64,000 bases of DNA, taken from the NCBI GenBank assembly GCA_964384945.1, contig CAYLMK010000001.1:350710-414709 (forward strand). Reading direction: 5' to 3'. The DNA is from an uncultured Thermodesulfobacteriota bacterium. GTDB lineage: Bacteria; Desulfobacterota; DSWW01. The notes below the pieces were generated by a model. It had not been told where the DNA came from. It saw only the letters and a program-made list of their open reading frames with translations, and ran no database searches. Made by a program: the position numbers and the translations under genes. The stretch's first letter is position 1; each line of letters opens with the position of its first letter. This document shows positions 5,299 through 19,781 of the stretch, in pieces.

Positions 5299-5700
<402 letters not shown>

Positions 5701-5718
5701 GGCGGAGGTGAGAGGAAA

Positions 5719-7020
5719 ATGAAAAACAAGCCTGTCGTACTGAGTATTCTCCTTTTCCTTCTGCTGTCGGGCGCAAACGCGGCCGCCCAGGAGGAGCCCA
5801 CCCTGGACACGGGAAACACGGCCTGGATGATCGTTGCGACGGCCCTCGTGATGTTCATGACGCCCGTGGGGCTTGCCCTATTCTACGGAGGAATGTCGCG
5901 GTCCAAGAACCTGCTGAATACCTTTGGGTTGAGTTTCACTTCGTATGTCATCGGGTCTGTGCTGTGGATGGTATGCGGCTACACGCTCGCCTTCGGCCCG
6001 GACCTGGGAGGCGTTCTGGGCAGCCTGTCCCATTTCTTCCTAAACGGCATCGGGGTGGAGGACCTCTCCGGAACGATCCCCACGTTTCTATTCGTCGTGT
6101 TTCAGATGACCTTTGCCGGCATCACGGTCGCGCTGATCAGCGGATCCGTGGTTGAGCGGATGAAATTCTCTTCCTGGCTCGTCTTCGCCGCCCTGTGGCT
6201 GCTCTTTGTCTACTCGCCGGTCTGCCACTGGGTCTGGGGCGGGGGATGGCTGGGTGCCCACGGGGCCCTGGACTTCGCGGGAGGAACCGTGGTGCACGTG
6301 AACGCCGGTGTCTCCGGCCTGGTCCTCGCCCTCATGCTCGGCAAAAGGAGGGGATACGGCAGGGAGCCGATGTTTCCCTCGAGCATTGTGCTGACATCGG
6401 CGGGCGCCGCCATGCTTCTGTTCGGCTGGTTCGGCTTCAACGCGGGCAGTGCACTCGCCTCGGACGGCATCGCCGCGTCCGCGTTCCTGGTCACGAACAC
6501 ATCCGCCTGCATCGGAGCCCTGACCTGGATGTTGGTCGAGTGGATCGTCCGGAAGAAACCGACCCTCCTGGGGCTTGCATCCGGCCTTGTCGCCGGGCTT
6601 GTCGGCATCACACCGGCTGCTGGCTTCGTGGATCTCTCCGGGGCCTTTGTCATCGGGATCGGCTCAGGCATCGTAGGCTATCTTGGCGTGGCCGTCCTCA
6701 AGCCGAAACTGGGATTCGACGACTCCCTGGATGCCTTCGGCGTGCACGGTCTCTGCGGCATCTGGGGCGCCCTTGCCACCGGTGTCTTCGCAAACCCTGC
6801 GATCAACGAAGCGGGTACCGGGTTCCTGTACGGAAACCCCGGGCAGGTCGCGATTCAACTGGTGGGGGTGGCGGCAACCATCGCTTATGCAGCCGTGGCC
6901 ACCTTCGTCCTGGCCTCGATCACCAAGGCGGTTACAGGGGGACTTCGCGTGAGCGATGAAGAGGAGGTCCAGGGACTGGACAGCGCGGCTCACGGCGAAA
7001 GGGCCTTTATGCTGCAGTAG
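5719..7020 (+). CDS. amtB: Ammonium transporter (Amt family), copy 1
   Basis: FYGGM, LDFAGGTVVH, LFGWFGFNAGS, FDDSLDAFGVHG; both conserved His present; N-terminal signal-like peptide. Confidence 0.95.
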   Translation: MKNKPVVLSILLFLLLSGANAAAQEEPTLDTGNTAWMIVATALVMFMTPVGLALFYGGMSRSKNLLNTFGLSFTSYVIGSVLWMVCGYTLAFGPDLGGVLGSLSHFFLNGIGVEDLSGTIPTFLFVVFQMTFAGITVALISGSVVERMKFSSWLVFAALWLLFVYSPVCHWVWGGGWLGAHGALDFAGGTVVHVNAGVSGLVLALMLGKRRGYGREPMFPSSIVLTSAGAAMLLFGWFGFNAGSALASDGIAASAFLVTNTSACIGALTWMLVEWIVRKKPTLLGLASGLVAGLVGITPAAGFVDLSGAFVIGIGSGIVGYLGVAVLKPKLGFDDSLDAFGVHGLCGIWGALATGVFANPAINEAGTGFLYGNPGQVAIQLVGVAATIAYAAVATFVLASITKAVTGGLRVSDEEEVQGLDSAAHGERAFMLQ

Positions 7021-7074
7021 CGGCCCCACGCCTCGGCCTCCCCACAGAAAGGTGAAAGGGAAAAGGGTTGTTTC

Positions 7075-7227
7075 ACAGGCGAAAGGGAAAAGGCGAACGG
7101 GTCACGCGGCGGTTGACGTTTTGAAAAGGCGTTCCAAAGAAAACAAATAGCCCTACAACGTCAAGAATTCCCTTGCTCCCGTTTTCCACACTGCATCCGT
7201 CCCTTTCGCCTTTGCCCTTTCGCCTGT
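7075..7227. repeat. Imperfect 27-bp inverted repeat pair (7075-7101 and 7201-7227) built from AGGCGAA/AGGGMAA heptamers
   Basis: ACAGGCGAAAGGGAAAAGGCGAACGGG versus the reverse complement of 7201-7227 (ACAGGCGAAAGGGCAAAGGCGAAAGGG): 2 mismatches in 27; lies between two convergent genes. Confidence 0.75.
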
Positions 7228-7272
7228 CCGGTCTGGCCCCTGATCCCGGACCCCTCATGTTGATTGCGTCCG

Positions 7273-8802
7273 CTAGCCTCTGTACTGACGGAAGTCCACC
7301 CCATACTTCCTGGCCTTGTAAGCGAATTTCCGCTCCGTCAACTTCACCAGCTGCGCCGCCTTGGCCATGTTGCCCCGCGTATTCTTGAGGGAGTCGATGA
7401 TGATCTCCCGCTCCAGGTTCGCCACCGCCTCCTCCAGGGACTGGGTCGGCACGGTATCCGACTCCTCGCCTGTCTGCAGGGTGGGCGGGAGATGGTAGCT
7501 GTGCACGACGTTCCCCTCGCAGAGGAGCACGGCCCTCTCGATGCAGTTCTCCAGTTCGCGCACGTTGCCGGGCCAGTGGTACTGCATCAGCATGTCGATG
7601 GCCGGTGTGGAGAGGCGACGGATATCCTTCTGGTTCTCCCCGGCGTACTTCTCGAGGAAGTGGTTTGCAAGCAGCAGGATATCCGTCTTTCGCTCCCGCA
7701 GGGGAGGCATGTAGATCGGAAAGACATTCAATCGATAGTAGAGATCGCCCCGGAAGGTCCCCTCTTCGACGGCCCTCTCGAGGTTCTTGCTCGTCGCGGC
7801 GATGATCCGGACGTCGGTCTTGATCGTCCGGTTTCCCCCGACCCGTTCGAATTCCCTCTCCTGCAGCACCCGCAAGAGGTTCGACTGCACATCCAGTCCG
7901 ATGGAGCCGATTTCATCCAGGAAGATCGTGCCCTTGTGGGCCAGCTCGAACTTCCCCTGCTTCTGCCGGATGGCGCCCGTGAAGGCGCCCTTCTCGTGCC
8001 CGAAGAGCTCGCTCTCGATCAGGTTGGCCGGCAGGGCCGCGCAGTTGAGCTTGACGAAGGGCTGCTTGGCGCGCAGGCTGTTGTAGTGGATCGCGTTCGC
8101 CGCCAGCTCCTTCCCTGTCCCGCTCTCCCCCCGGATCAGGACCGTGGCATTGCTCCGGCAAACCTGCGAGATCATCTGGTAGACCTCGCGCATCTTGTTG
8201 CTGTTGCCCACGATGTTTTTGATGCTGTGCTTGACGGCGAGCTGTTCCTGAAGCCGGAGGTTCTCCAGACGGAGGGTTTCCTGTTCCATCTGGAGGGTCT
8301 CCAGGTTGATCACCCTTTGCGCCAGCATGGTGGCGATCACCTCGAGACGCCGCACGCTCGCCTTCAGGTCGGCCGAGGGATCGAACGGGAAATCCGTGCT
8401 CAGGGTCCCGACCACCTGGCTTCCCTTTTGAATGGGCACGCACAGGAAGGAGAGCTCCTCCTCCCCCCGCCTCCGCCTGCCCGTCCGGTCCAGGAAAAGA
8501 GGCTCCTCGCTGATCTTCGGGACGATGATCGGTTTCCCCTTCTCGATGACCCGGCCCGTGATGCCCTCTCCCAGCTTGTACCTGCCGCGCTCCATCTCCT
8601 TGGGGGTGAGCCCGTGGGCCACCTCGATGCGGATCTCGTTGCGCAGGGGATTCAGGATCGTGATGGTGCCCCGCTTCATGTTCAGGGATTCCGACAGGAT
8701 CTCCAGCACCAGGTACAACGACTTCCTGAGGTCGATCGTCGAGTTCAGGGCCTTGACGATCTCGTACAGGAACGTGATTTCTTGGATGTCTTCCTTTTTC
8801 AT
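7273..8802 (-). CDS. NifA-type sigma-54-dependent activator (GAF - AAA+ - Fis-type HTH)
   Basis: GAF domain ([17 protein letters not shown]), Walker [32 protein letters not shown]-terminal HTH; no receiver domain. Start at 8802 or 8811. Confidence 0.9.
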
Positions 8803-8963
8803 GCCGCGCATCCGACAGACCGAAACCCCCGCGGATTCCGTTCTTGTGAAAGGCACTCCAATTTTGTCGTTTTCAACCCAAGTCTACACAAAACTGTTCC
8901 CGTTGCAATAGCCATCCGAATCCGACGGGGGGTCCCGGCGTGAGATCAGCCGATTTCACTTGA

Positions 8964-9404: not shown

Positions 9405-12400
9405 CTATCCTCCGAAAACCCTCTCCAGCAAATGGGTCGTGTAGGCCCCTCGCACCCGCAGCATGCATGCCTCGAGCACCTCCGCGAGACGGGCCTCGTT
9501 TCCCTCCCGCCCGAACAGCCTCCTCGCCAGTGCCTTCCGTTCCGCGGGATCCCTGGGCAGGCAATGGACCTGTCTGTCCTCGAGCACCTGCAGCGCATGC
9601 TCCACCCTGCGCAAAAAAAGGTAGTCCTGCGAGAGCTGAGCGCCGGTGCGCTCGGGAAGGAGGCCGGCCGCGCGGAGAGCGTCCAAAGCCTCGAGGGTAT
9701 TTCCCGTGAGAAGGCCGGGCCGGGCCGGGCCATGGATGAGCTGAAGCCCCTGGGCGAGGAACTCCACGTCCCGGATCCCCCCTTCGCCGTTCTTGACGTC
9801 CAGCCCGCGTCCCAGCGACCGGGCCGCCTTGCTCACGGCCGCCCGCCGCATCGCCTCGATCGATGCCACCAGGCGATTCGCGTCGCGCCGCTCGAGCAGG
9901 ACGGACCGCATCTCCCCGAGCAGCCGATCTCCGAGTTCCAGATTGCCCGCTATGGGCCGCATCTTCAGGGCCGCCTGAATCTCCCAGAGGGAGGCTTCCC
10001 GCCGGTAGTACTCCATAAGCCCGGAGAGGGAAGGCACCAGGTCGCCCGACTGTCCATGGGGCCGCAGCCGAAGATCGACCCGGTACACATAGCCCGCGTC
10101 GGTATGTCGCGACAGATCGAGGCTCACCCGCTCCATGACCTCTGCATAGAGATGGTTGAAAGCCTCCCCCTGCTGACTTCCCGGGCCCGGCACCGGTTTT
10201 GGGAAGTCGAAGACGCCCACCAGGTCGATGTCCGAGCTGTAGTTGAGTTCGCGGCCTCCGAGCTTTCCGAAGGCCAGGATGCAGAAGTACTTCGACGGAT
10301 CGTCCGTCCCTCCTGGCACCGACCCCTCCTCCAGGACGTCCTTCAGGACCTTGCGGAGGGCCATCCGGACCAACGCCTCGGCCAGCGTCGTCAGATCCAG
10401 CATGACCTCCTGGACCGGCACGCCCAGGGCCATGTCCCGCACGCCGATCCGGAGGATTTCCCTTCTCCACATGCGCCTCAGGACGCCCATCCAGTTCTCG
10501 TGACTCCCCGCTCTCAGGAGGGCTCCTTCCAGTTCCGCCTCGATGTCGGCTCGATTCCGGACGCCGCGCAGATTCTCGGGCAGGATGATCCAGTCGAGAA
10601 ACCCGGGGTAGCGAACCAGCGTGTCGGAGAGGAACTGACTCCCCGCAAAGATGTTCAGAAGGATCTCGAGCCGCATGGGCTGGGAGAGGACCAGGTTGTA
10701 ATGAAACTCGGGGCTGGACCTCACGTGTAGGAAGCGCTCCCAGTTGTTGAGCGCCATGTCCGGGTCGGGCGTCTGGGAAAGGATGTCCGCAGCCAGGAGG
10801 GAAATCTTCGCAAAGGTGTGCCGCCGGGTGCCCTCGCCCGCCAGGCTCCGAAGGTTCGCGCAGGCGCGCTGCGGGTTCAGGAAACCGAGCCTCTCCAGCA
10901 CCTGCCGGGAGAGGTCCTCCGGCACGCTGTCGGCCAGGACGAGATCCGCAACCGTTCCGGTGGCGGGCCCGGGCAGGAAGGTCCGGCCGAAGTGTTTCTC
11001 GGCAAAGGCGCGTACGACCGCCGTGTGCGTCTCGTAGTCGATCTCCAGTTGCCGGGCCGGCCCGAGTGGCCCGCCCTCCCGGTAGCCCATCCGCCTGGCC
11101 AGGTGCGCGAACTCCAGCGATCCCGAAGGGGGCAGAAACACATCCTTTGCAGAGCCCCGCAGCATGCGCATCGAATTGATCAGGTGCCGGAGGAACGCAT
11201 AGGCATCCAGAAGCTGGCCGGTCTCGTCCGGGGTGAGGATGCCCGCATCCGAGAGGGCCGCCAGAGCGCGATGCAGTTCCGGCGTCTTCAGCCTCGGATG
11301 GGCGCTGCCGTGCAGGACTTGGAGAATCTGGACATTGTATTCGAGGTCCACGAGCCCGCCCGGGCTGAACTTGGCGTTCCGTTCGTCCTTATGCGTCTTT
11401 TCGCGATACTGCCTTTCCCGAAGTTCCCGAAGCTCCTCAAGATCGATCGGCCGGGCCCGGTAGAGGATCTCGTCCCGGATTCGCTCCACGCGGGAGCCGA
11501 GGGACGGGCTCCCGCCGATGGCACGCATGCGCACGAGCGCCAGCCGCTCGTACGAGTGGGCCGGCCCGCCGGGGCCGTAATATCGACAGAAGCTTTCCAG
11601 GCTGCACGCCAGCGGACCGGAATCGCCGTGGGGGCGGAGGCGCAGGTCGACCTGAAAGATGCCTTCCCGCTTGGCCCGGATCGATTGCGCGGTCAGCTGA
11701 ACCAGCCGATTGAAGAATTCGGAGTTCTCGATCGACTCCTTCCCGTCGGTCCTTCCCTGGTCTCCGTAGACCAGGAGAAACTCGATGTCCGAGGCATACC
11801 CCAGCGCGGCCCCTCCCAGCTTGCCGAGCCCGAAGACCGCATGCTCGGCCTCCCGGTCGGCCGCGGTCGTGGGCCTGCCGTAGCGGGCCACGAGATGTTC
11901 GTAACAGAACCGCGTTGCGGTCCTGACCACCGTTTCCGCGAGCCGGGTGAGCCGGCCGGCAAGGGCCCTGAAGTCCATCTTGGGGTCGAGGATGTGATCC
12001 AGGTCGATCTGAAAGATCTCCTGATCCTTGAACGCATTCAGCCGATTCCGCCTCTCCTCCAGGTCCCGGGCGCCCCGCAGGGTCTCCTCGAGCCGCTCGG
12101 CAAGACTCTCCTCCGGCAGGCTGAACCGCTTCTCCTTCACGATGGGCTGGAACATGGGCAAGAGGGTCTCGTAGTGGAGGCGGATGAAATCCTCCCACAG
12201 GAACTCGCTTGCGCCGAGCAGGCGTGCCAGATCCCTGAGCGCGTGGGGGTTGGAAAGGGTCTCGAGCCACCGGTCCGGAGCCGGCAGGTCCAGGACATCC
12301 TGCACGAGCTGTTTGAAGCGAAGCAGGGCCGAGTACCGATCCGGGGCCTGCCCCAGGAAACCGGTGAACTGTTTCGTAAGCAGTACCGACAGCTTGATCC

Positions 12401-13226
12401 GACTCAGGGCCTCCGGGTCCTCGATCTTCCTGCCGCCCGCATCCACGACATCGATCTCGTCGGCGATTTCGCCCTCGAGCGTGCGGATCTGAACGTGTTC
12501 GATCGCAATGCCGTGCAGGGAGAATGCCTGGGTCAGGGAATAGAGAAAGGCGGGCGTGTCCCTGCAGACGACCTTGAGCCGGGTGTACTCGCCGCTTCGG
12601 TTGTCGACCTCGATCAGGACCGGCGAGAGAACGGGAGGGCCGTCCGCATGAAGACGGTCCAGTTCCCGAACCACCATTTCATTGACCTGGTGCCGGGCCT
12701 TCTCCGCCGACTGGCTGTCTCCTCTTTCCAGGAGCAGGAAGGCATCCGAAATGCTCTTCTCGATCTCCTGCGCCCACGCCTCGAACCCGGATTCCCGCCG
12801 CCTCGACCCGAAGAAATGATTCACGATCCGCCTTCGGCCCAGCGGATCCGGTCTTCCCGCGAAGGGAGGCTGACCCCCTTGCCATCCCCGGCGTGGGGAC
12901 GCCTGTTCCCTGCGGCGGTACGTGAATACGTCCCCGGAGGATATATGGAAGCCCATCCCGGCCAGGATGCCGGTCATGAGGGAGAAGACCCCCAGATAGT
13001 CGAACCCGAGGACCGTCACGTCCACCTGCCGGTGCCCGGCGTCCCGAAGGATCAGCTCAACCGGATGGTCGGGCCTCAGGCGGGACAAGGCCAGGAGGTG
13101 TTCGCGGATTTCGTGCTCGGAGAAGCGGTCGAAGTACCGCTGGCCCAGACGGTTCAGATGCTCCTCGACCAGCCTCGGGTCGACATCCGGACACCTTTCC
13201 CGCATGGATTCGAGGGTCGGTTTCAT
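9405..13226 (-). CDS. glnE: Glutamine synthetase adenylyltransferase/adenylyl-removing enzyme with extra N-terminal GlnD-like ACT domains
   Basis: Two nucleotidyltransferase modules (GKLGGAALGYASDIEF...DLRLRPHGDSG and GKLGGRELNYSSDIDL...DLRLRPHGQSG), each followed by a K...GG..D+E helix domain; 1273 aa. Confidence 0.9.
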   Translation of the reverse strand: MKPTLESMRERCPDVDPRLVEEHLNRLGQRYFDRFSEHEIREHLLALSRLRPDHPVELILRDAGHRQVDVTVLGFDYLGVFSLMTGILAGMGFHISSGDVFTYRRREQASPRRGWQGGQPPFAGRPDPLGRRRIVNHFFGSRRRESGFEAWAQEIEKSISDAFLLLERGDSQSAEKARHQVNEMVVRELDRLHADGPPVLSPVLIEVDNRSGEYTRLKVVCRDTPAFLYSLTQAFSLHGIAIEHVQIRTLEGEIADEIDVVDAGGRKIEDPEALSRIKLSVLLTKQFTGFLGQAPDRYSALLRFKQLVQDVLDLPAPDRWLETLSNPHALRDLARLLGASEFLWEDFIRLHYETLLPMFQPIVKEKRFSLPEESLAERLEETLRGARDLEERRNRLNAFKDQEIFQIDLDHILDPKMDFRALAGRLTRLAETVVRTATRFCYEHLVARYGRPTTAADREAEHAVFGLGKLGGAALGYASDIEFLLVYGDQGRTDGKESIENSEFFNRLVQLTAQSIRAKREGIFQVDLRLRPHGDSGPLACSLESFCRYYGPGGPAHSYERLALVRMRAIGGSPSLGSRVERIRDEILYRARPIDLEELRELRERQYREKTHKDERNAKFSPGGLVDLEYNVQILQVLHGSAHPRLKTPELHRALAALSDAGILTPDETGQLLDAYAFLRHLINSMRMLRGSAKDVFLPPSGSLEFAHLARRMGYREGGPLGPARQLEIDYETHTAVVRAFAEKHFGRTFLPGPATGTVADLVLADSVPEDLSRQVLERLGFLNPQRACANLRSLAGEGTRRHTFAKISLLAADILSQTPDPDMALNNWERFLHVRSSPEFHYNLVLSQPMRLEILLNIFAGSQFLSDTLVRYPGFLDWIILPENLRGVRNRADIEAELEGALLRAGSHENWMGVLRRMWRREILRIGVRDMALGVPVQEVMLDLTTLAEALVRMALRKVLKDVLEEGSVPGGTDDPSKYFCILAFGKLGGRELNYSSDIDLVGVFDFPKPVPGPGSQQGEAFNHLYAEVMERVSLDLSRHTDAGYVYRVDLRLRPHGQSGDLVPSLSGLMEYYRREASLWEIQAALKMRPIAGNLELGDRLLGEMRSVLLERRDANRLVASIEAMRRAAVSKAARSLGRGLDVKNGEGGIRDVEFLAQGLQLIHGPARPGLLTGNTLEALDALRAAGLLPERTGAQLSQDYLFLRRVEHALQVLEDRQVHCLPRDPAERKALARRLFGREGNEARLAEVLEACMLRVRGAYTTHLLERVFGG

Positions 13227-13416: not shown

Positions 13417-13836
13417 TCATGTAGTTGCCTTTGAAGCGGCGGTTGCTTGCTTTTCCCATCGCTTCTTCTTTTGTTCATCGATATCACCTGGATACATGAC
13501 CGCTTCATGGCCTTTTTCACCCGTGCGGATCCTCACCACATCCTCCACCGGGTAGATAAAGATGAGGCCGTCCCCGGTTTCCCCGGTCCTTGCGGCCTGC
13601 ACGATGGCTTCCAGGGTCTCTTGTAAGTTGTGCTCGCTCAGAATGATGTTGAGCTGAAGCTTGGGAAGCATGTCCACGTGATAGGTTCCAGAGCGGCCAA
13701 CCAGTTCGATGCCGCCTTGCCGTCCCTGTCCCCTGATCTCGAAAACGTTCATCCCCACGATACCGATGGAGCGAAGGGCCTCCTTCACATCCCCGAGCTT
13801 CTCCTCACGTATGATCGCTTCGATTTTTTTCAACAT
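13417..13836 (-). CDS. Divergent P-II family protein with a C-terminal extension
   Basis: KKIEAIIREEKL, GQGRQGGIELVGRSGTYHVDMLPK, TGETGDGLIFIYPVEDVVRIRTGE, plus an extra tail of roughly 25 aa; directly downstream of the second amt. Confidence 0.88.
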   Translation of the reverse strand: MLKKIEAIIREEKLGDVKEALRSIGIVGMNVFEIRGQGRQGGIELVGRSGTYHVDMLPKLQLNIILSEHNLQETLEAIVQAARTGETGDGLIFIYPVEDVVRIRTGEKGHEAVMYPGDIDEQKKKRWEKQATAASKATT

Positions 13837-13956: not shown

Positions 13957-15183
13957 TCATGAATAGGCACGTTCACCATGAGCGCTGATATCCAGACCCA
14001 CCGCTTCCTCCATGACGCTCACCCTGAGCCCGATGCTCCAGTCCAGCACCTTGGCCACGGCGAACGTCACCCCGAACGTGAAGACGATGGTCACGAGAAC
14101 GGCAAGAATCTGGACGCCGAATTGGCCCGGGTTTCCGAAGAAGAACCCGTTGTTCCCTCCACCGTTCACCTCAAGGGTGGCAAACAGGCCCGCCGCCAGT
14201 ACACCCCACGTGCTGGACATTCCGTGGCAGGCCCAGACGTCCAGGGACTCGTCCAGACCGCGCCGCGCACGGAAACGGATGGCGTAGTAGCCGATGGGAG
14301 CGGCAACCGCACCGATGATCATGGCTGCCATCGGCGTAACGAAACCCGAGGCCGGCGTCACGGCAGCCAGGCCCACGACAAAACCGGTAGCCATCCCCAG
14401 TGTGCTGGGCCGGCCGTCCAGCCAGCTCAGAAGCATCCAGACGAGCCCGGCCGCGGCCGCAGAGGTATTGGTGGTCAGCAGTGCATTGGTGGCCACACCG
14501 TTGGCCGCCAGTGCGCTCCCTGCGTTGAATCCGAACCAGCCCACCCACAGCAGCCCTGCGCCGAGGACGGTGTATGGGATATTGCTAGGCTCCATGCTTG
14601 CTTTCCCAAAACCCCGACGGGGACCCACGGCCAGAGCGAAGGCCAGCGCAGAGAACCCTGCCGCAATGTGAACCACGGTTCCACCCGCGAAGTCCAGAAC
14701 CCCCATCGCGGCAAGCCAGCCCCCCTTTCCCCAAACCCAATGGCACAAGGGGTCATAAACGAGCGTTGCCCACACGAGGCTGAACAGAAGGAAGCTCTTG
14801 AAACGCGTCCGCTCCACAAAGGCGCCCGTAATCAGGGCCGGCGTGATGACAGCGAACATCATTTGAAACGCTGCAAAAGCCTGATGGGGAATGGTGGTGC
14901 CGTAGTCCGGGCTGGGGGCGCCTCCCACCCCCTTGAACCCGAGGAAGGTCAGGCCGCCGATCAGGCCGCCGATGTCCTCCCCAAAGGCAAGCGAGTAGCC
15001 GTAAAGGACCCACTGCACCCCGATCAGGGCCATGAAAATGTAACTGAGGGTCAATGTGGACAGGATGTTCTTACGGCGAACCATTCCCCCATAGAAAAAA
15101 GCCAGGGCAGGGGTCATCATGAGAACGAGTGCGCAGCTCACCAAGACCCATGCGGTGTCTCCGCTATTGATTTGACCGGCCAT
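13957..15183 (-). CDS. amtB: Ammonium transporter (Amt family), copy 2
   Basis: GDTAWVL, FFYGGMVRRKN, FQMMFAVITPAL, LDFAGGTVVH, GWFGFNAGS, LDESLDVWACHG; both His conserved; no signal peptide. Confidence 0.95.
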   Translation of the reverse strand: MAGQINSGDTAWVLVSCALVLMMTPALAFFYGGMVRRKNILSTLTLSYIFMALIGVQWVLYGYSLAFGEDIGGLIGGLTFLGFKGVGGAPSPDYGTTIPHQAFAAFQMMFAVITPALITGAFVERTRFKSFLLFSLVWATLVYDPLCHWVWGKGGWLAAMGVLDFAGGTVVHIAAGFSALAFALAVGPRRGFGKASMEPSNIPYTVLGAGLLWVGWFGFNAGSALAANGVATNALLTTNTSAAAAGLVWMLLSWLDGRPSTLGMATGFVVGLAAVTPASGFVTPMAAMIIGAVAAPIGYYAIRFRARRGLDESLDVWACHGMSSTWGVLAAGLFATLEVNGGGNNGFFFGNPGQFGVQILAVLVTIVFTFGVTFAVAKVLDWSIGLRVSVMEEAVGLDISAHGERAYS

Positions 15184-15294: not shown

Positions 15295-16719
15295 TTAGGC
15301 GTCGTAATACAAGGCAAATTCCCAGGGGTGGGGACGAAGGTCGAGGGCCTGCACTTCGTTCTTCATCTTGTAGGAGATCCAGGTCTCGATCACATCCTCG
15401 GTGAAGACATCCCCCTTCAAAAGGTAGGCATTGTCGGCTTCCAGCGCCTTGAGCACTTCCCGCAGGCTTCCGGGCGTCTGCGGGACCTTGGCAAGTTCCT
15501 CCGGAGGAAGGTCGTAGATGTCCTTGTCGAGCGGTTCGCCGGGGTCGATCTTGTTCTGGATGCCGTCGAGTACGGCCATCAGCATGGCGGAGAAGGCGAT
15601 GTACGGGTTGCAGGTCGGGTCCGGACACCGGAATTCGAGGCGCTTCGACTTGGGCGAGGTCGAGTACATCGGAATCCGGATGGCCGCACTCCGGTTGCGC
15701 CGCGAGTAGGCCAGGTTCACCGGCGCCTCGAACCCCGGGACGAGCCGCTTGTAGCTGTTCGTGGTCGGGTTCGTGAAGGCGAGCAGCGAAGGCGCGTGCT
15801 TGAGCAGGCCGCCGATGGCGTAAAGCGCCATGTCCGAAAGACCCGCGTACTTGTCGCCTGCAAACAGGTTCGCCCCCTTCTTCCACAGGGAGATGTGCGT
15901 GTGCATTCCGCTCCCGTTGTCGTTGAAGAGCGGCTTGGGCATGAAGGTCACGGTCTTGTTGTGCCTGCGGGCCGTGTTCTTGACCACGTATTTGTACATC
16001 AGAAGCTTGTCCGCCATCTGCACGAGGGGCAGGAAGCGCATATCGATTTCCGCCTGCCCGCCGGTGGCCACCTCATGGTGCTGCGCCTCGACCCAAATGC
16101 CCATCTTCTCCATGGCGAGCACCATCTCGCTGCGGATGTCCTGCTGGCTGTCCGTGGGAGGAACCGGGAAGTAGCCTTCCTTGTATCGGGGCTTGTACCC
16201 CAGGTTGGGATTCTCCACCCGGCCCGAATTCCACCGACCCTCCATGGAATCGATGTGATAGTATCCCTCCCGCTCGTTCTGATCGAAGCGGATGTCGTCG
16301 AAGATGAAGAACTCGGCCTCCGGGCCGTAGTAGGCTGTGTCCGCGAGGCCCAGGCTTTTGAGATAGTTTTCGGCCTTCCGCGCGATGTTCCGTGGATCCC
16401 GGGTGTAGTCCTCGCCCGTAACCGGGTCGCAGATGTTGCAGATCATGGTCAGGGTCTTGTGGGCCAGGAAGGGATCCAGAAAGGCGGTCTCCGGAACGGG
16501 CTTGACGATCATGTCCGACTCGTTGATCGCCTGCCATCCCCGGATGCTCGATCCGTCGAACCCGAGCCCCTCCTCGAAGGTGCTCTCCTCGATCTCTCGC
16601 GGCGGCACGGAGAAATGCTGCCAGAGACCGGGGAAATCCATGAATCGGAGATCCACCATCTCCACGTTTTCCTGTTTGATGAACTTCACTACATCCGCCG
16701 GGGTTTTGAACTCGCTCAT
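15295..16719 (-). CDS. glnA: Glutamine synthetase type I (GSI-beta, adenylylatable)
   Basis: [59 protein letters not shown]; adenylylation-site Tyr in DKDIYDLP. Confidence 0.97.
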
Positions 16720-16830: not shown

Positions 16831-16846
16831 GGCAATAACCGTGCCA
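16831..16846 (-). promoter_or_regulatory. Sigma-54 (-24/-12) promoter of glnA
   Basis: Minus strand reads TGGCAC-GGTTA-TTGCC, a full match to TGGCAC-N5-TTGC, about 110 nt upstream of the glnA ATG. Confidence 0.88.
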
Positions 16847-16922: not shown

Positions 16923-16967
16923 CGACATAAATGTCGTATTTCTCTCTATCTCTAGACAACAATGTCG
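16923..16967. promoter_or_regulatory. Tandem enhancer-like palindromes upstream of the glnA promoter
   Basis: CGACAT-AA-ATGTCG (16923-16936, perfect) and AGACAA-CA-ATGTCG (16954-16967, 10/12), 31 bp apart, centred near -109 and -140 from the inferred start site. Confidence 0.65.
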
Positions 16968-19573
16968 CTTCCTCCCGGTCCGTTTCTCAGCACCTTCCCC
17001 AGGGCCTCTCCGATGCCGGCCGCCGCGGCCGCTCCGTCGAGCTTCTGCCCCGCCTCATCGCGGACGTAGAAGATGTCCACCACCTGGTCCACGTTTGTCG
17101 CGATCTTGGCGAGCACGACGTTCAGGTTCATGCGGAACAGGGCGTTCGTGATCTTGTAGAGCAGCCCCGGGTAGTCGTGCGTATGAACCTCCACGATCGT
17201 GAAGAAACCGGAACTCTCGTTGTCCACGACCACCCTGTCCGGCCTCCGCGGGCCGGCCTTGCGGCTCCTCCTGCAGGACAGGAGCTTCTCTCGCAGCGCA
17301 TCCTCGAGGACGAGCGAGCCGGCAAGGGCGGCGTGCAGATCGCTGCGCACCTTGCGCCAAACTTGATCCTCGCGGAGGCTGTCGGGGGGCGGCCGCACCG
17401 TGAAGACATCGAGGGCGATCCGGTTCCGCCAGGTGTAGATATTGGCGTTCAGGATGTCCAGGTTGTTCAGGGTGAAGACCCCGGAAAAGGTCGCGAAAAG
17501 ACCGGGCCGGTCCCTGGCGCACACGGTGACCGTCCGAAAGTCTCCTTCCGAGGGAGGACCGGGGTCGATCACGAAGGGGGCGTCGCCGAGCATCTGAAAG
17601 AGCTCCAGGTGGCGAACAATGTCGCCGGCCCTCGTATACAGCAGATACCGGGGGGACATGTTCTCGAAGAGGGTCTCCACCTTCTCCCGGTCCATGAAAC
17701 GAGCCTCCCGGAACACCTCCGCCCTCTTCTTCTCCACGATCTCCTCCGAGGTCCTCGTGGCCAGTTCCCCGCCCCGCAGGATGAGGTGGGCCTTGAAGAA
17801 GAGCTCCCGGAGAAGCGCCTCGGTCCAGGAGTTCCAAGCCTTGGGGCCTGTCGCGATGCAGTCGGCCACGGTCAGGAGATAGAGCATCCGAAGACGATCG
17901 ACATCCCGGAATTTTCTCGCGAACTGCACCACGAGCTTCTCGTCCTGAAGGTCGCGCTGGGTGGCCGTCTTGACCATGGACAGATGCTCCCGGACCAGGA
18001 AGCAGACCGTATCGATGTCGTCGGCGGAAAGACCCATCCGTTCCAATACCGTCCTGGCAATCTCGGCGCCCTGCTCGGAATGGTCCCGGCCCGGAACCCC
18101 CTTGCCCACGTCGTGCAAAAGGGCCGCCCACAGGACAAGCTCCGGTCTGTCCATTTCCCGGAAGAGCTGGGCGTAGAGCGGGCCGCCCTGCCCGGAGGCC
18201 GGATCCGCCAGGCCCTTGAGGATCCGCACGGCCAGAAGGGAATGCTTGTCGACCGGATGCACATGGTATTCGTCGTACTGAATCCGATGGACGATGGGCG
18301 CCATCTCCGGCAGCAAGGCGATCAGGATTCCCGTGTTGAGCATTTCGTTGAGTGCGTTGAAGATTTGCGGCGGCGCAACGAGGATCCGCTGTATCGAATG
18401 AACCACGGCGGCCGAGTTTCGATACGCCTCATCGATCATCGGGAGGCACCTGCGCACGAGACGGGCGGCCTCGATCGACAGGGGCACGCCCAAGAGCGCA
18501 CTTTGCTCGAAGATCCTTATCAGCAGGAGGGGATTGGCGCGCACGGCCTCCGGAGACTCGAAATGCAGGGCATCCCGGTGGACCCGCAGCCCCGGGATGC
18601 GCAGGCGGGCCAGGATCTTCCTGGGGTACGGCTTTTCCCCCCGGGGCATTGCCTTGTTCAGGAAGCTTCGATGCAGATGCTTGACGAACTCCATATGGCC
18701 GTGGATCTCCCCCAGGAACCGCTCCACGGCCTGCTGTCCCCGGGCAGGCTCGAACCCCATATCCCGGGCCAGCTGGACCTGGTGCTCGAAGTAGAGCTGG
18801 TCGCACTTCCTGCCCGTGATCATGTGCAGCCGGTTTCTCACAACCCAGAGAAAGGAAACGGCCCGGAGGAGGCCTTGCATCTCTTCCGGGGCGAGATGCC
18901 CCGCTTCCACGAGTTCGTCCGCCTCCTTCAGACGGTACTTGCACCAGGCGATCCAGCGGATCGAATGATAATCCCTCAGGCCTCCCAGTCCCTCCTTCAG
19001 GTTGGGTTCCAGGAGGTACGCGGAGTCACCGTAGTGGGCATGCCGCCGTTGGATCGTCTCTGCGAGCCGGCCAAGAAGCGCGCGGCCGCGCCTTCGCACC
19101 AGCCTGTCCTGGGCCTCTGCCATGAGGTCCGAATAAAGCGAGGAGATTCCGCAGAGAAAACGCGCGTCGATCATGGAGGTGAAGACCTCGAAATCCTCGG
19201 CGGCAAGTCGCGTGCATTCGCGTAACGATCGGGTACTGTGGCCGACATCCAGGCCGATGTCCCAGAGGGGATAGAAGATCTCCTGAATGAGTTCGTTGGC
19301 CTCCGGGGGCACCCGCTTGCCGAACAGCAGGAGAACGTCCACGTCCGAGTGCAGGCATTGCTCTTTTCTCCCGTAGCCGCCCAGGGCGACGAGCGCGCAG
19401 GGGTTCTTTTCCATGTGCATGCGAGGGCCCACCGAGCTCCTGGCGAAGCTTTCCTGGAAATACTCGTCCAGCATCCCCGTGTGCTCCTCGACGAACCCGG
19501 GTGCCTCCCCTTTCCGGAAGCGCAATACGAGCGCTCTTCGCTTTTCCTGCAGCGCAAGGACGGGGGACTTCAT
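16952..19573 (-). CDS. glnD: [Protein-PII] uridylyltransferase / uridylyl-removing enzyme
   Basis: GGYGRKEQCLHSDVDVL NTase motif, EPNLKEGLGGLRD, HD domain (LLHDVGKG), two C-terminal ACT domains; 873 aa. Confidence 0.95.
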   Translation of the reverse strand: MKSPVLALQEKRRALVLRFRKGEAPGFVEEHTGMLDEYFQESFARSSVGPRMHMEKNPCALVALGGYGRKEQCLHSDVDVLLLFGKRVPPEANELIQEIFYPLWDIGLDVGHSTRSLRECTRLAAEDFEVFTSMIDARFLCGISSLYSDLMAEAQDRLVRRRGRALLGRLAETIQRRHAHYGDSAYLLEPNLKEGLGGLRDYHSIRWIAWCKYRLKEADELVEAGHLAPEEMQGLLRAVSFLWVVRNRLHMITGRKCDQLYFEHQVQLARDMGFEPARGQQAVERFLGEIHGHMEFVKHLHRSFLNKAMPRGEKPYPRKILARLRIPGLRVHRDALHFESPEAVRANPLLLIRIFEQSALLGVPLSIEAARLVRRCLPMIDEAYRNSAAVVHSIQRILVAPPQIFNALNEMLNTGILIALLPEMAPIVHRIQYDEYHVHPVDKHSLLAVRILKGLADPASGQGGPLYAQLFREMDRPELVLWAALLHDVGKGVPGRDHSEQGAEIARTVLERMGLSADDIDTVCFLVREHLSMVKTATQRDLQDEKLVVQFARKFRDVDRLRMLYLLTVADCIATGPKAWNSWTEALLRELFFKAHLILRGGELATRTSEEIVEKKRAEVFREARFMDREKVETLFENMSPRYLLYTRAGDIVRHLELFQMLGDAPFVIDPGPPSEGDFRTVTVCARDRPGLFATFSGVFTLNNLDILNANIYTWRNRIALDVFTVRPPPDSLREDQVWRKVRSDLHAALAGSLVLEDALREKLLSCRRSRKAGPRRPDRVVVDNESSGFFTIVEVHTHDYPGLLYKITNALFRMNLNVVLAKIATNVDQVVDIFYVRDEAGQKLDGAAAAAGIGEALGKVLRNGPGGSDIVV

Positions 19574-19781
19574 GGCACTCCGCGCGGGCCTTCAGCAACT
19601 TCCAAGGGACTCGAACCCCGGAAGAGCAACCCGCATGCCAGGCTCCGGATTCACGGAAAAAAACGAGCAGGCCCGGCCGGATACACGGCCGGGAAGAGGG
19701 CCGGGAAAGAGGAAACGGGGCATTTGAAACAAAAATGTAGGAACGAAAGGCGGCTCGGGATCCCCCGGGAATGGCCCCCCT

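Follow-up and report, generated by a model that had tools for sequence, protein, structure and literature searches.

Glutamine synthetase (GS) adenylylation is a textbook bicyclic regulatory cascade, and how the adenylyltransferase reads glutamine has, to our knowledge, never been settled structurally. The Escherichia coli adenylyltransferase, GlnE, is already responsive to glutamine and does so without ACT domains. As far as PMC12409994 and PMC12894286 describe it, this enzyme deadenylylates GS through its N-terminal domain (AR) and adenylylates it through its C-terminal domain (AT), with a regulatory (R) region placed before AT. GlnD's ACT domains are stated to be required for the glutamine response of that protein, and the Chlamydomonas amylase AMA2 requires a GlnD/ACR-like N-terminal ACT domain for its activation by glutamine (PMC11190351). 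Here, we report a GlnE that carries a GlnD-type tandem ACT module at its N-terminus. It is encoded in a stretch of 64,000 nucleotides (the window; positions 350,710 to 414,709 of contig CAYLMK010000001.1, assembly GCA_964384945.1) from an uncultured Thermodesulfobacteriota bacterium. We lean towards the view that the ACT pair is a nitrogen-status sensor, most probably for glutamine, which would gate the adjoining AT-like half of the enzyme. The protein, its module and the GlnD of the same window, with which the module is compared, are laid out as follows; aa denotes amino acids and AF2 AlphaFold2.

9405..13226, minus strand: ACT-GlnE, 1273 aa, tandem ACT module followed by a DxE (AT-like) half and a DxD (AR-type) half (open reading frame, Pfam, NCBIfam)
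13077..13226, minus strand: helical lead-in, aa 1-50, AF2 helices 5-11, 17-26, 29-34 and 37-47, homologous to the GlnD segment before ACT1 (HHalign, AF2)
12726..13067, minus strand: ACT1, aa 54-167, strands 56-64, 67-75, 93-102 and 133-142, helices 80-90 and 148-167 (AF2, BLASTP, HHalign)
12831..12920, minus strand: basic disordered insertion between ACT1 strands, aa 103-132 (predicted local confidence, composition, HHalign gap)
12654..12716, minus strand: inter-ACT helix, aa 171-191 (AF2)
12336..12620, minus strand: ACT2, aa 203-291, and the junction motif LLTKQFTxFLxxAPD, aa 282-297 (Pfam match at 215-266, AF2, invariant residues)
16952..19573, minus strand: GlnD, 873 aa, with nucleotidyltransferase, HD and two ACT domains (open reading frame, Pfam, NCBIfam)
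about 16994-17686, minus strand: C-terminal module of GlnD, homologue of the GlnE N-terminus (BLASTP, HHalign)

The likeness to GlnD, noticed by eye in the initial annotation, is confirmed by NCBIfam, HHalign, AF2 and Foldseek. When the N-terminal 300 aa were scanned alone against NCBIfam, five GlnD equivalog models were returned and no other family was significant (PRK05092, E 2e-11; TIGR01693 over positions 616-843 of 850, E 3.7e-8). BLASTP aligned GlnE residues 70-269 with residues 682-846 of the window GlnD at 22% identity (E 2e-6). Profiles built from 15 GlnE N-terminal modules and from the C-terminal 277 residues of eight GlnD proteins of the window and related loci were compared by HHalign, which matched GlnE residues 18-280 to the GlnD C-terminal segment over 225 columns with a probability of 98.2% (E 3.6e-14). 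From the RYF/RYL lead-in helix onwards this alignment runs collinearly across ACT1 and ACT2, and the three stretches of GlnE and GlnD first paired by eye fall in the same register. Homology is collinear between residues 1-297 of GlnE and the final ~230 residues of GlnD, comprising helical lead-in, ACT1 and ACT2. The N-terminal location of the module was thus placed correctly at the outset, while its end lies at about residue 297 (nt 12336), slightly past the ~285 residues (12370-13226) originally given. The E. coli GlnE (946 aa) contains PF03710 and PF08335 only and, as had been assumed, has no ACT domain.

Pfam speaks less clearly, and its verdict detracts from an ACT assignment: PF01842 matches residues 215-266 of the window GlnE, where an ACT hit had been anticipated, with 19.9 bits under a gathering score of 27. 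A relative with another domain order, P0139, passes both ACT (27.1 bits) and ACT_ACR9_3rd (PF24931, 37.3 bits against a cutoff of 27). Among full-length homologues PF01842 is precomputed for a minority, and the record of the window protein itself lacks it; with scores of this kind below threshold, the module is largely invisible in standard public annotation. A search of PDB sequences with the module profile gave zero matches, and GlnD structures were absent from both the sequence and the fold matches of the module.

The fold prediction asked for in the initial annotation returned an ACT fold, with a mean predicted local distance difference test (pLDDT) of 86.6 and a predicted template modelling score (pTM) of 0.86 from the 15-sequence alignment. 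In ACT2 the elements are strands 203-208, 215-222, 241-250 and 253-261 and helices 227-237 and 271-291. The best Foldseek match in the PDB was the large glutamate dehydrogenase L-GDH180 of M. smegmatis (E 8e-6); also matched were the SerB2 tandem ACT, an aspartate kinase regulatory subunit, a threonine deaminase regulatory domain and 3-phosphoglycerate dehydrogenase; the ACT-like domain of plant GL3 was matched with a template modelling (TM) score of 0.81 and a root-mean-square deviation of 2.5. The 15 sequences, 37-73% identical to the window module, share 40 invariant and 36 nearly invariant columns, which indicates that the module is under selection. Invariant positions in ACT2 and the junction are D223, T224, P225, F227, L228, K285, Q286 and F287. 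The beta1-alpha1 loops are strongly conserved (D76; D223-T224-P225), and these invariant residues are compatible with a putative ligand site.

The insertion between ACT1 strands has a pLDDT below 50 for residues 109-124 and faces a gap in GlnD in the HHalign alignment. In 38 homologues its median length is 27 aa and its content of arginine and lysine 27%, against 12% in the remaining module. It is rich in Arg, Lys and Pro, is conserved in composition and length and variable in sequence, and ends in a nearly invariant DPLxRRRI[IV]D.

The taxonomic census of the fusion that had been suggested was made by scanning one genome per GTDB species, which located the module in at least 463 species-representative genomes from more than eight phyla. 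The carriers, mostly uncultured, include Thermodesulfobacteriota (Desulfobacterales, Desulfatiglandales, Smithella), Spirochaetales, Kiritimatiellae, Verrucomicrobiota, Planctomycetota, FCPU426, Goldbacteria, Firestonebacteria and the cultured Delta proteobacterium NaphS2. The subfamily as a whole spans Thermodesulfobacteriota, Spirochaetota, Planctomycetota, Verrucomicrobiota/Kiritimatiellae, Calditrichota and several candidate phyla. Counts at the level of loci refer to the best 80 loci of this census, in which nearly all open reading frames complete within the fetched DNA encode ~1230-1340 aa and two nucleotidyltransferase motifs. In 1.84 billion representative proteins the module profile found 2693 matches at E <= 1e-3, 819 at 1e-10 and 254 at 1e-30, and with residues 1-790 as query 1300 homologues were obtained at E <= 1e-30. 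Since the module is 43-73% identical between phyla and 22% identical to the resident GlnD, the fusion must be ancient; the ACT domains may be called borrowed, as they had been, in respect of their GlnD homology and not in the sense of a recent transfer from the GlnD next door. With a fusion so widespread, the window copy is an ordinary member of a subfamily that has gone undescribed.

Three architectures were found. The form seen in the window, ACT-DxE-DxD, is represented by 49 full-length proteins among the top representative matches. A permuted DxD-ACT-DxE form of ~1245 aa occurs in P0139, P0160, P0163 and P0169, of which P0160 comes from a metagenome-assembled genome of Calditrichota. A single-half ACT-DxE form of 725-797 aa has 19 representatives, all stopping at the homologous end of a half; for P0048 (737 aa), one of these stand-alone proteins, the gene was confirmed to be complete within a 7.3-kb contig. 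In every full-length relative inspected the ACT pair lies immediately N-terminal to the half with the motif G-[YF]-[AG]-S-D-[ILVM]-E, and in none of them directly before the half with NYSSDID. From this constant adjacency it follows that the ACT pair and the DxE half form one evolutionary cassette, which is presumably a functional one too.

Some irregular members were also seen. The ACT-GlnE frame stops early in two relatives, after 607 aa in L008 (CP070692.1, 6001-7821) and after 400 aa in P0015 (on a 314-kb contig). Past these stops homology continues or diverges, and they may be frameshifts, pseudogenes or assembly errors. P0096 (997 aa) has a dihydroneopterin aldolase (FolB) domain before the ACT pair and a single GlnE half, which could reflect a merged gene call or an additional fusion.

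The remainder of the window protein is that of a GlnE by domain content and curated score, yet it departs from the canonical order of halves. It contains two PF03710 nucleotidyltransferase domains, each with a PF08335 helical domain after it (Pfam GlnE, E 5e-101 in two stretches; GlnD_UR_UTase, E 1.6e-45 in two stretches), and the catalytic motif G-x(n)-D-x-[DE] is present in both halves. NCBIfam PRK11072 scores 499.2 bits, above its equivalog cutoff of 487; PRK14109 and PRK14108 stay under theirs. An HD domain is absent and the catalytic halves are of GlnE type in Pfam, so the protein is not a GlnD. The halves and their motifs are located as follows.

10947..12335, minus strand: first catalytic half, ~aa 298-760, classed as a divergent AT-like nucleotidyltransferase with helical domain (Pfam, half models, signatures, Foldseek to 1v4a and 3k7d)
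11781..11825, minus strand: nucleotidyltransferase motif of the first half, GKLGGAALGYASDIE, aa 468-482, conserved in 80 loci
9408..10946, minus strand: second catalytic half, ~aa 761-1273, AR-type, that is, of the canonical N-terminal, deadenylylase type (half models, ELNYSSDID and YRVDLRLRP, placement by PRK14108/PRK14109)
10224..10268, minus strand: nucleotidyltransferase motif of the second half, GKLGGRELNYSSDID, aa 987-1001

To assign the halves, hidden Markov models (HMMs) were built from the N- and C-terminal halves of ten canonical GlnE (E. coli, Aeromonas, Acinetobacter, Neisseria, Legionella, Sinorhizobium, Tistrella, Sphingomonas, Tsukamurella and Nonomuraea). A homology search with the E. 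coli GlnE as query had returned Enterobacteriaceae only, with no diversity, and the diverse references were drawn from chromosomes and chromids misfiled in a plasmid collection. Many of the glnE-bearing records of that collection (H1, H3, H4, H7, H9-H11, H13-H15, H17, H18, H20-H24 and H30) are 2-12 Mb long and evidently chromosomes. Held-out canonical halves were classified correctly by these models, by 100-290 bits. With five reference sets, the DxD half scored higher as AR than as AT in 79/79, 79/79, 78/79, 79/79 and 78/79 cases. The DxE half scored higher as AT in 77/84 with references from eight Proteobacteria, in 73/84 with all ten taxa and in 81/84 with alpha references only.

Short signatures point the same way. 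ELNx[SV]SD[IV]D is found in 10/10 canonical AR halves and R-[VT]-D-x-RLRP in 8/8, and canonical AT halves have neither. Both are present in the C-terminal half of the window protein (ELNYSSDID, YRVDLRLRP) and absent from its N-terminal half (ALGYASDIE, FQVDLRLRP), which instead has HLVARYGRP, the equivalent of QMVARYGKP in the AT half of E. coli; canonical AT halves and the ACT-adjacent half have ARYG[RK]P and the non-R state in common. Moreover, PRK14108 and PRK14109 put the C-terminal half of the window protein on their N-terminal halves. The assignment of the C-terminal half to the AR type is solid as judged from sequence. That of the ACT-adjacent half to a divergent AT-like lineage, by signature and elimination, is moderately supported, and AT activity would be expected to go with it. 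The canonical order of N-terminal AR, central R and C-terminal AT is hence unlikely to be that of the window GlnE, whose order, ACT-AT'-AR (AT' being the divergent AT-like half), is probably permuted relative to E. coli.

Several results weaken this assignment or run against it. The DxE half scored higher as AT in just 11/84 cases with gamma/beta references and in 34/84 with actinobacterial ones, and its HMM margins are only ~12 bits. In a neighbour-joining bootstrap, the split into AR+DxD and AT+DxE was recovered in 60/200 replicates, and no replicate gave an alternative. PRK11072 matches residues 347-1129 collinearly to its model positions 42-830, and the ACT-adjacent half, with TM 0.77 to 1v4a and 0.65 to 3k7d, is not separated into AR or AT by Foldseek. 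Pairwise scores against these two structures (1V4A, the E. coli AR domain; 3K7D, the R and AT domains) did not discriminate either, at 130.7 versus 130.0 bits for the first half and 164 versus 152 for the second, and one global MAFFT alignment left nine usable AR/AT-discriminating columns and no clear verdict.

The rival order, in which the halves are collinear with those of E. coli (N-terminal AR, C-terminal AT) and the ACT pair would regulate deadenylylation and not adenylylation, draws on the placement of the first half on the N-half and of the second on the C-half by PRK11072, on the gamma/beta-only models, which score the DxE half higher as AR in 73/84, and on the higher TM score to 1v4a. 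It would leave the AR scores of the DxD half (78-79 of 79 in every reference set), the C-terminal location of the AR signatures ELNxSSDID and R-[VT]-D-x-RLRP and the PRK14108/PRK14109 placement unaccounted for, and the DxD-ACT-DxE relatives match the E. coli order only if DxD is AR. We consider the collinear order rather improbable. If DxD is AR, the ACT pair of those relatives occupies the canonical central regulatory position, just before AT. The SDIE motif to which the initial annotation drew attention is real (residues 479-482) and kept across the fused family; the half that bears it is AT-like by HMMs and signatures and, with the AR type lying in the C-terminal half, probably not equivalent to the N-terminal deadenylylase of E. 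coli. Within the superfamily, Asp-x-Glu counts among the accepted forms of the D-x-[DE] metal-binding motif. As it fits the pattern G-x(n)-D-x-[DE] and is conserved in the fused family, SDIE is read as a lineage signature of the AT' half with no sign of lost activity.

With the halves ordered as ACT-AT'-AR, the ACT pair would bind a small nitrogen-status ligand, most probably glutamine, and the signal would be passed to the adjoining nucleotidyltransferase half. This signal may in turn adjust the adenylylation of the neighbouring GlnA at Tyr402, alongside PII control or partly in its place. Glutamine is suggested as the ligand because GlnD needs its ACT domains for the glutamine response and AMA2 needs its ACT domain for activation by glutamine; by analogy with these two proteins, the direct reading of glutamine or another amino acid proposed in the initial annotation is reasonable. 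As the E. coli enzyme senses glutamine without ACT domains, the module would be an alternative or additional sensor and not the origin of glutamine sensing in GlnE. Work by Jaggi et al. in 1997 is said to have found the AT-C fragment of the E. coli enzyme, in isolation, to be activated by glutamine, with which a sensor located ahead of the AT half would be consistent. Less favourable to a glutamine sensor is that the genome retains a complete GlnD along with two PII proteins, so that a direct sensor is not strictly needed. The glycine of the GlnD-type DxPG loops (DRPG, DYPG) is replaced, giving DYLG/DYPx in ACT1 and DTPA in ACT2, and the pocket of the module may therefore differ from that of GlnD. 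The AF2 model of residues 1-790 has a pLDDT of 81.9 and a pTM of 0.65, with 52-75 for junction residues 300-370; because of this low confidence at the junction we make no claim as to an interface of the ACT pair with the catalytic domain.

A bolder proposal, which we put forward tentatively, is that the ACT pair and the AT-like half constitute an autonomous glutamine-gated GS adenylyltransferase cassette, able to act without PII, that can stand alone and was joined to AR in both orders in the course of evolution. If true, this would mark the physical site at which the GS adenylyltransferases of these lineages read glutamine, and the cassette would be a naturally modular GS switch.

Alternatively, the ACT pair could sense another ligand, such as a different amino acid (e.g. 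glutamate), 2-oxoglutarate or a nucleotide. ACT domains bind many ligands and their sequence is no predictor of specificity (PMC11190351), and both the altered DxPG loops and the basic disordered ACT1 insertion, which GlnD lacks, would be in keeping with a changed specificity. We think it unlikely, given that the nearest homologues by sequence are GlnD ACT pairs only, that glutamine governs the GlnE substrate cycle in every system studied and that the GlnD/ACR-like ACT domain fused to another enzyme in AMA2 responds to glutamine.

A module for oligomerisation or docking without small-molecule sensing, through which GlnE would dimerise or bind PII or GS, possibly by the basic loop, appears distinctly unlikely. 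Such roles are common among ACT domains; the ACT1 insertion is basic in composition and variable in sequence, as a docking element might be; a PII gene lies immediately upstream of glnE, and the region before the AT domain binds PII in the canonical adenylyltransferase (PMC12894286). Yet it is at the beta1-alpha1 loops (D76; D223-T224-P225), the usual ligand sites of ACT domains, that the invariant residues are concentrated, and the module is retained in stand-alone ACT-AT' proteins. That the resemblance to GlnD is due to chance or composition, or that the N-terminal extension is a gene-call artefact, has practically no probability left in spite of the 22% pairwise identity and the sub-threshold Pfam score, being refuted by three independent significant sequence statistics (NCBIfam, BLASTP, HHalign), by a confident AF2 fold whose Foldseek matches are ACT proteins and by conservation in 463 genomes, hundreds of which keep the entire extension and its MKPxxE... 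N-terminus, which also makes the start codon of glnE credible.

The sensor reading, with GlnA as the presumed substrate of ACT-GlnE, is set in a compact nitrogen-assimilation cluster on the minus strand of the window, comprising glnD, glnA, amtB, a PII gene and glnE. In most of the 80 related loci glnA is directly upstream of ACT-glnE, and glnD lies within 6 kb in seven. The neighbouring features of the window are the following.

15295..16719, minus strand: GlnA (type I GS), adenylylation-site motif DKDIY(402)DLPPEE (open reading frame, sequence)
13957..15183, minus strand: AmtB ammonium transporter (open reading frame, synteny)
13417..13836, minus strand: PII protein, 139 aa, immediately 5' of glnE, with variant T-loop and C-terminal extension (Pfam P-II, E 1.6e-27)
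7273-8856, minus strand: GAF/sigma-54 activator/HTH_8 regulator, directly 3' of glnE
5719-7020, plus strand: ammonium transporter of the second nitrogen module
5362-5700, plus strand: canonical PII, T-loop YRGAEY
16831-16846, minus strand: sigma-54-type promoter match TGGCACGGTTATTGCC, one mismatch, ~112 nt 5' of glnA
19625-19640, minus strand: sigma-54-type promoter match TGGCATGCGGGTTGCT, one mismatch, ~52 nt 5' of glnD

The PII protein at 13417-13836 is atypical in that its T-loop, GQGRQGGIELVGRSGTYHVD, departs from the canonical sequence with the tyrosine retained at the equivalent position, and that its C-terminus is extended by ~27 residues, among which Lys, Gln and Ala abound (YPGDIDEQKKKRWEKQATAASKATT). 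A second nitrogen module occupies 5362-8856. The scan for sigma-54 promoters gave 20 matches in the window against 20.6 expected, and hence no overall enrichment.

The exact ACT-GlnE protein is present in public collections, on a 518-kb contig. A search for papers pairing GlnE with the ACT domain found none in the literature library covered, and we have found the architecture in databases just as an occasional PF01842 tag on GlnE entries, with no description. The named matches listed for the query of residues 1-790 carry plain labels, 'glutamate-ammonia-ligase adenylyltransferase' or 'glutamine synthetase adenylyltransferase'. Annotation is thus to be corrected on two counts: most members are labelled as plain GlnE without mention of ACT, and the E. 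coli domain order should not be assumed for them. The interest to specialists lies in the fixed ACT-AT' cassette, in its permuted and split forms and in a possible handle on how GS adenylyltransferases read glutamine. The subfamily offers a tractable system in which to ask whether an ACT pair can replace or supplement PII control, which half is regulated and how the halves permute and split. Engineered one-directional adenylyltransferases already force ammonia excretion in diazotrophs (PMC9249168), and a natural stand-alone ACT-AT' protein could for this reason be of practical interest.

In comparison with known systems, the window protein agrees with the E. coli GlnE in its two homologous Pol-beta-type nucleotidyltransferase halves, each with a helical GlnD_UR_UTase domain after it, in passing PRK11072 and in adjoining a GS with the adenylylation tyrosine motif. 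It differs by ~297 extra N-terminal residues, the tandem ACT module, by halves that are probably permuted and by a divergent AT-like half in which D-x-E replaces D-x-D. With GlnD, the module has in common the motifs D-x-P-x-[LF]-[LF]-[YS] and I-x-T...D...V-x-D-x-x-G-x-K-[IL]. At ~22% identity, it is set apart by the replaced loop glycine, the 27-aa basic insertion and an extra inter-ACT helix, and by its position, which is C-terminal in GlnD and N-terminal or central in GlnE.

The nearest functional precedent is the Chlamydomonas AMA2, likewise an ACT-enzyme fusion and activated by glutamine (PMC11190351), although with a single ACT domain, an unrelated eukaryotic catalytic domain and a different metabolic target. 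The mycobacterial L-GDH180 (7JSR), the best structural match, is also an enzyme of nitrogen metabolism with N-terminal ACT-like domains; its TM score over the whole module is, however, 0.28-0.38 and its identity 13-18%, and its catalytic domain is unrelated. Plant ACR proteins (e.g. ACR11) have GlnD-like ACT repeats linked to the GS/glutamate synthase (GOGAT) cycle and, unlike GlnE, consist of ACT repeats only, without a catalytic domain. Permuted relatives of the module fall within reach of the ACR9-like family through PF24931 (ACT_ACR9_3rd, 37.3 bits against 27), and the N-terminal module of GlnE belongs with the GlnD/ACR type of ACT repeats.

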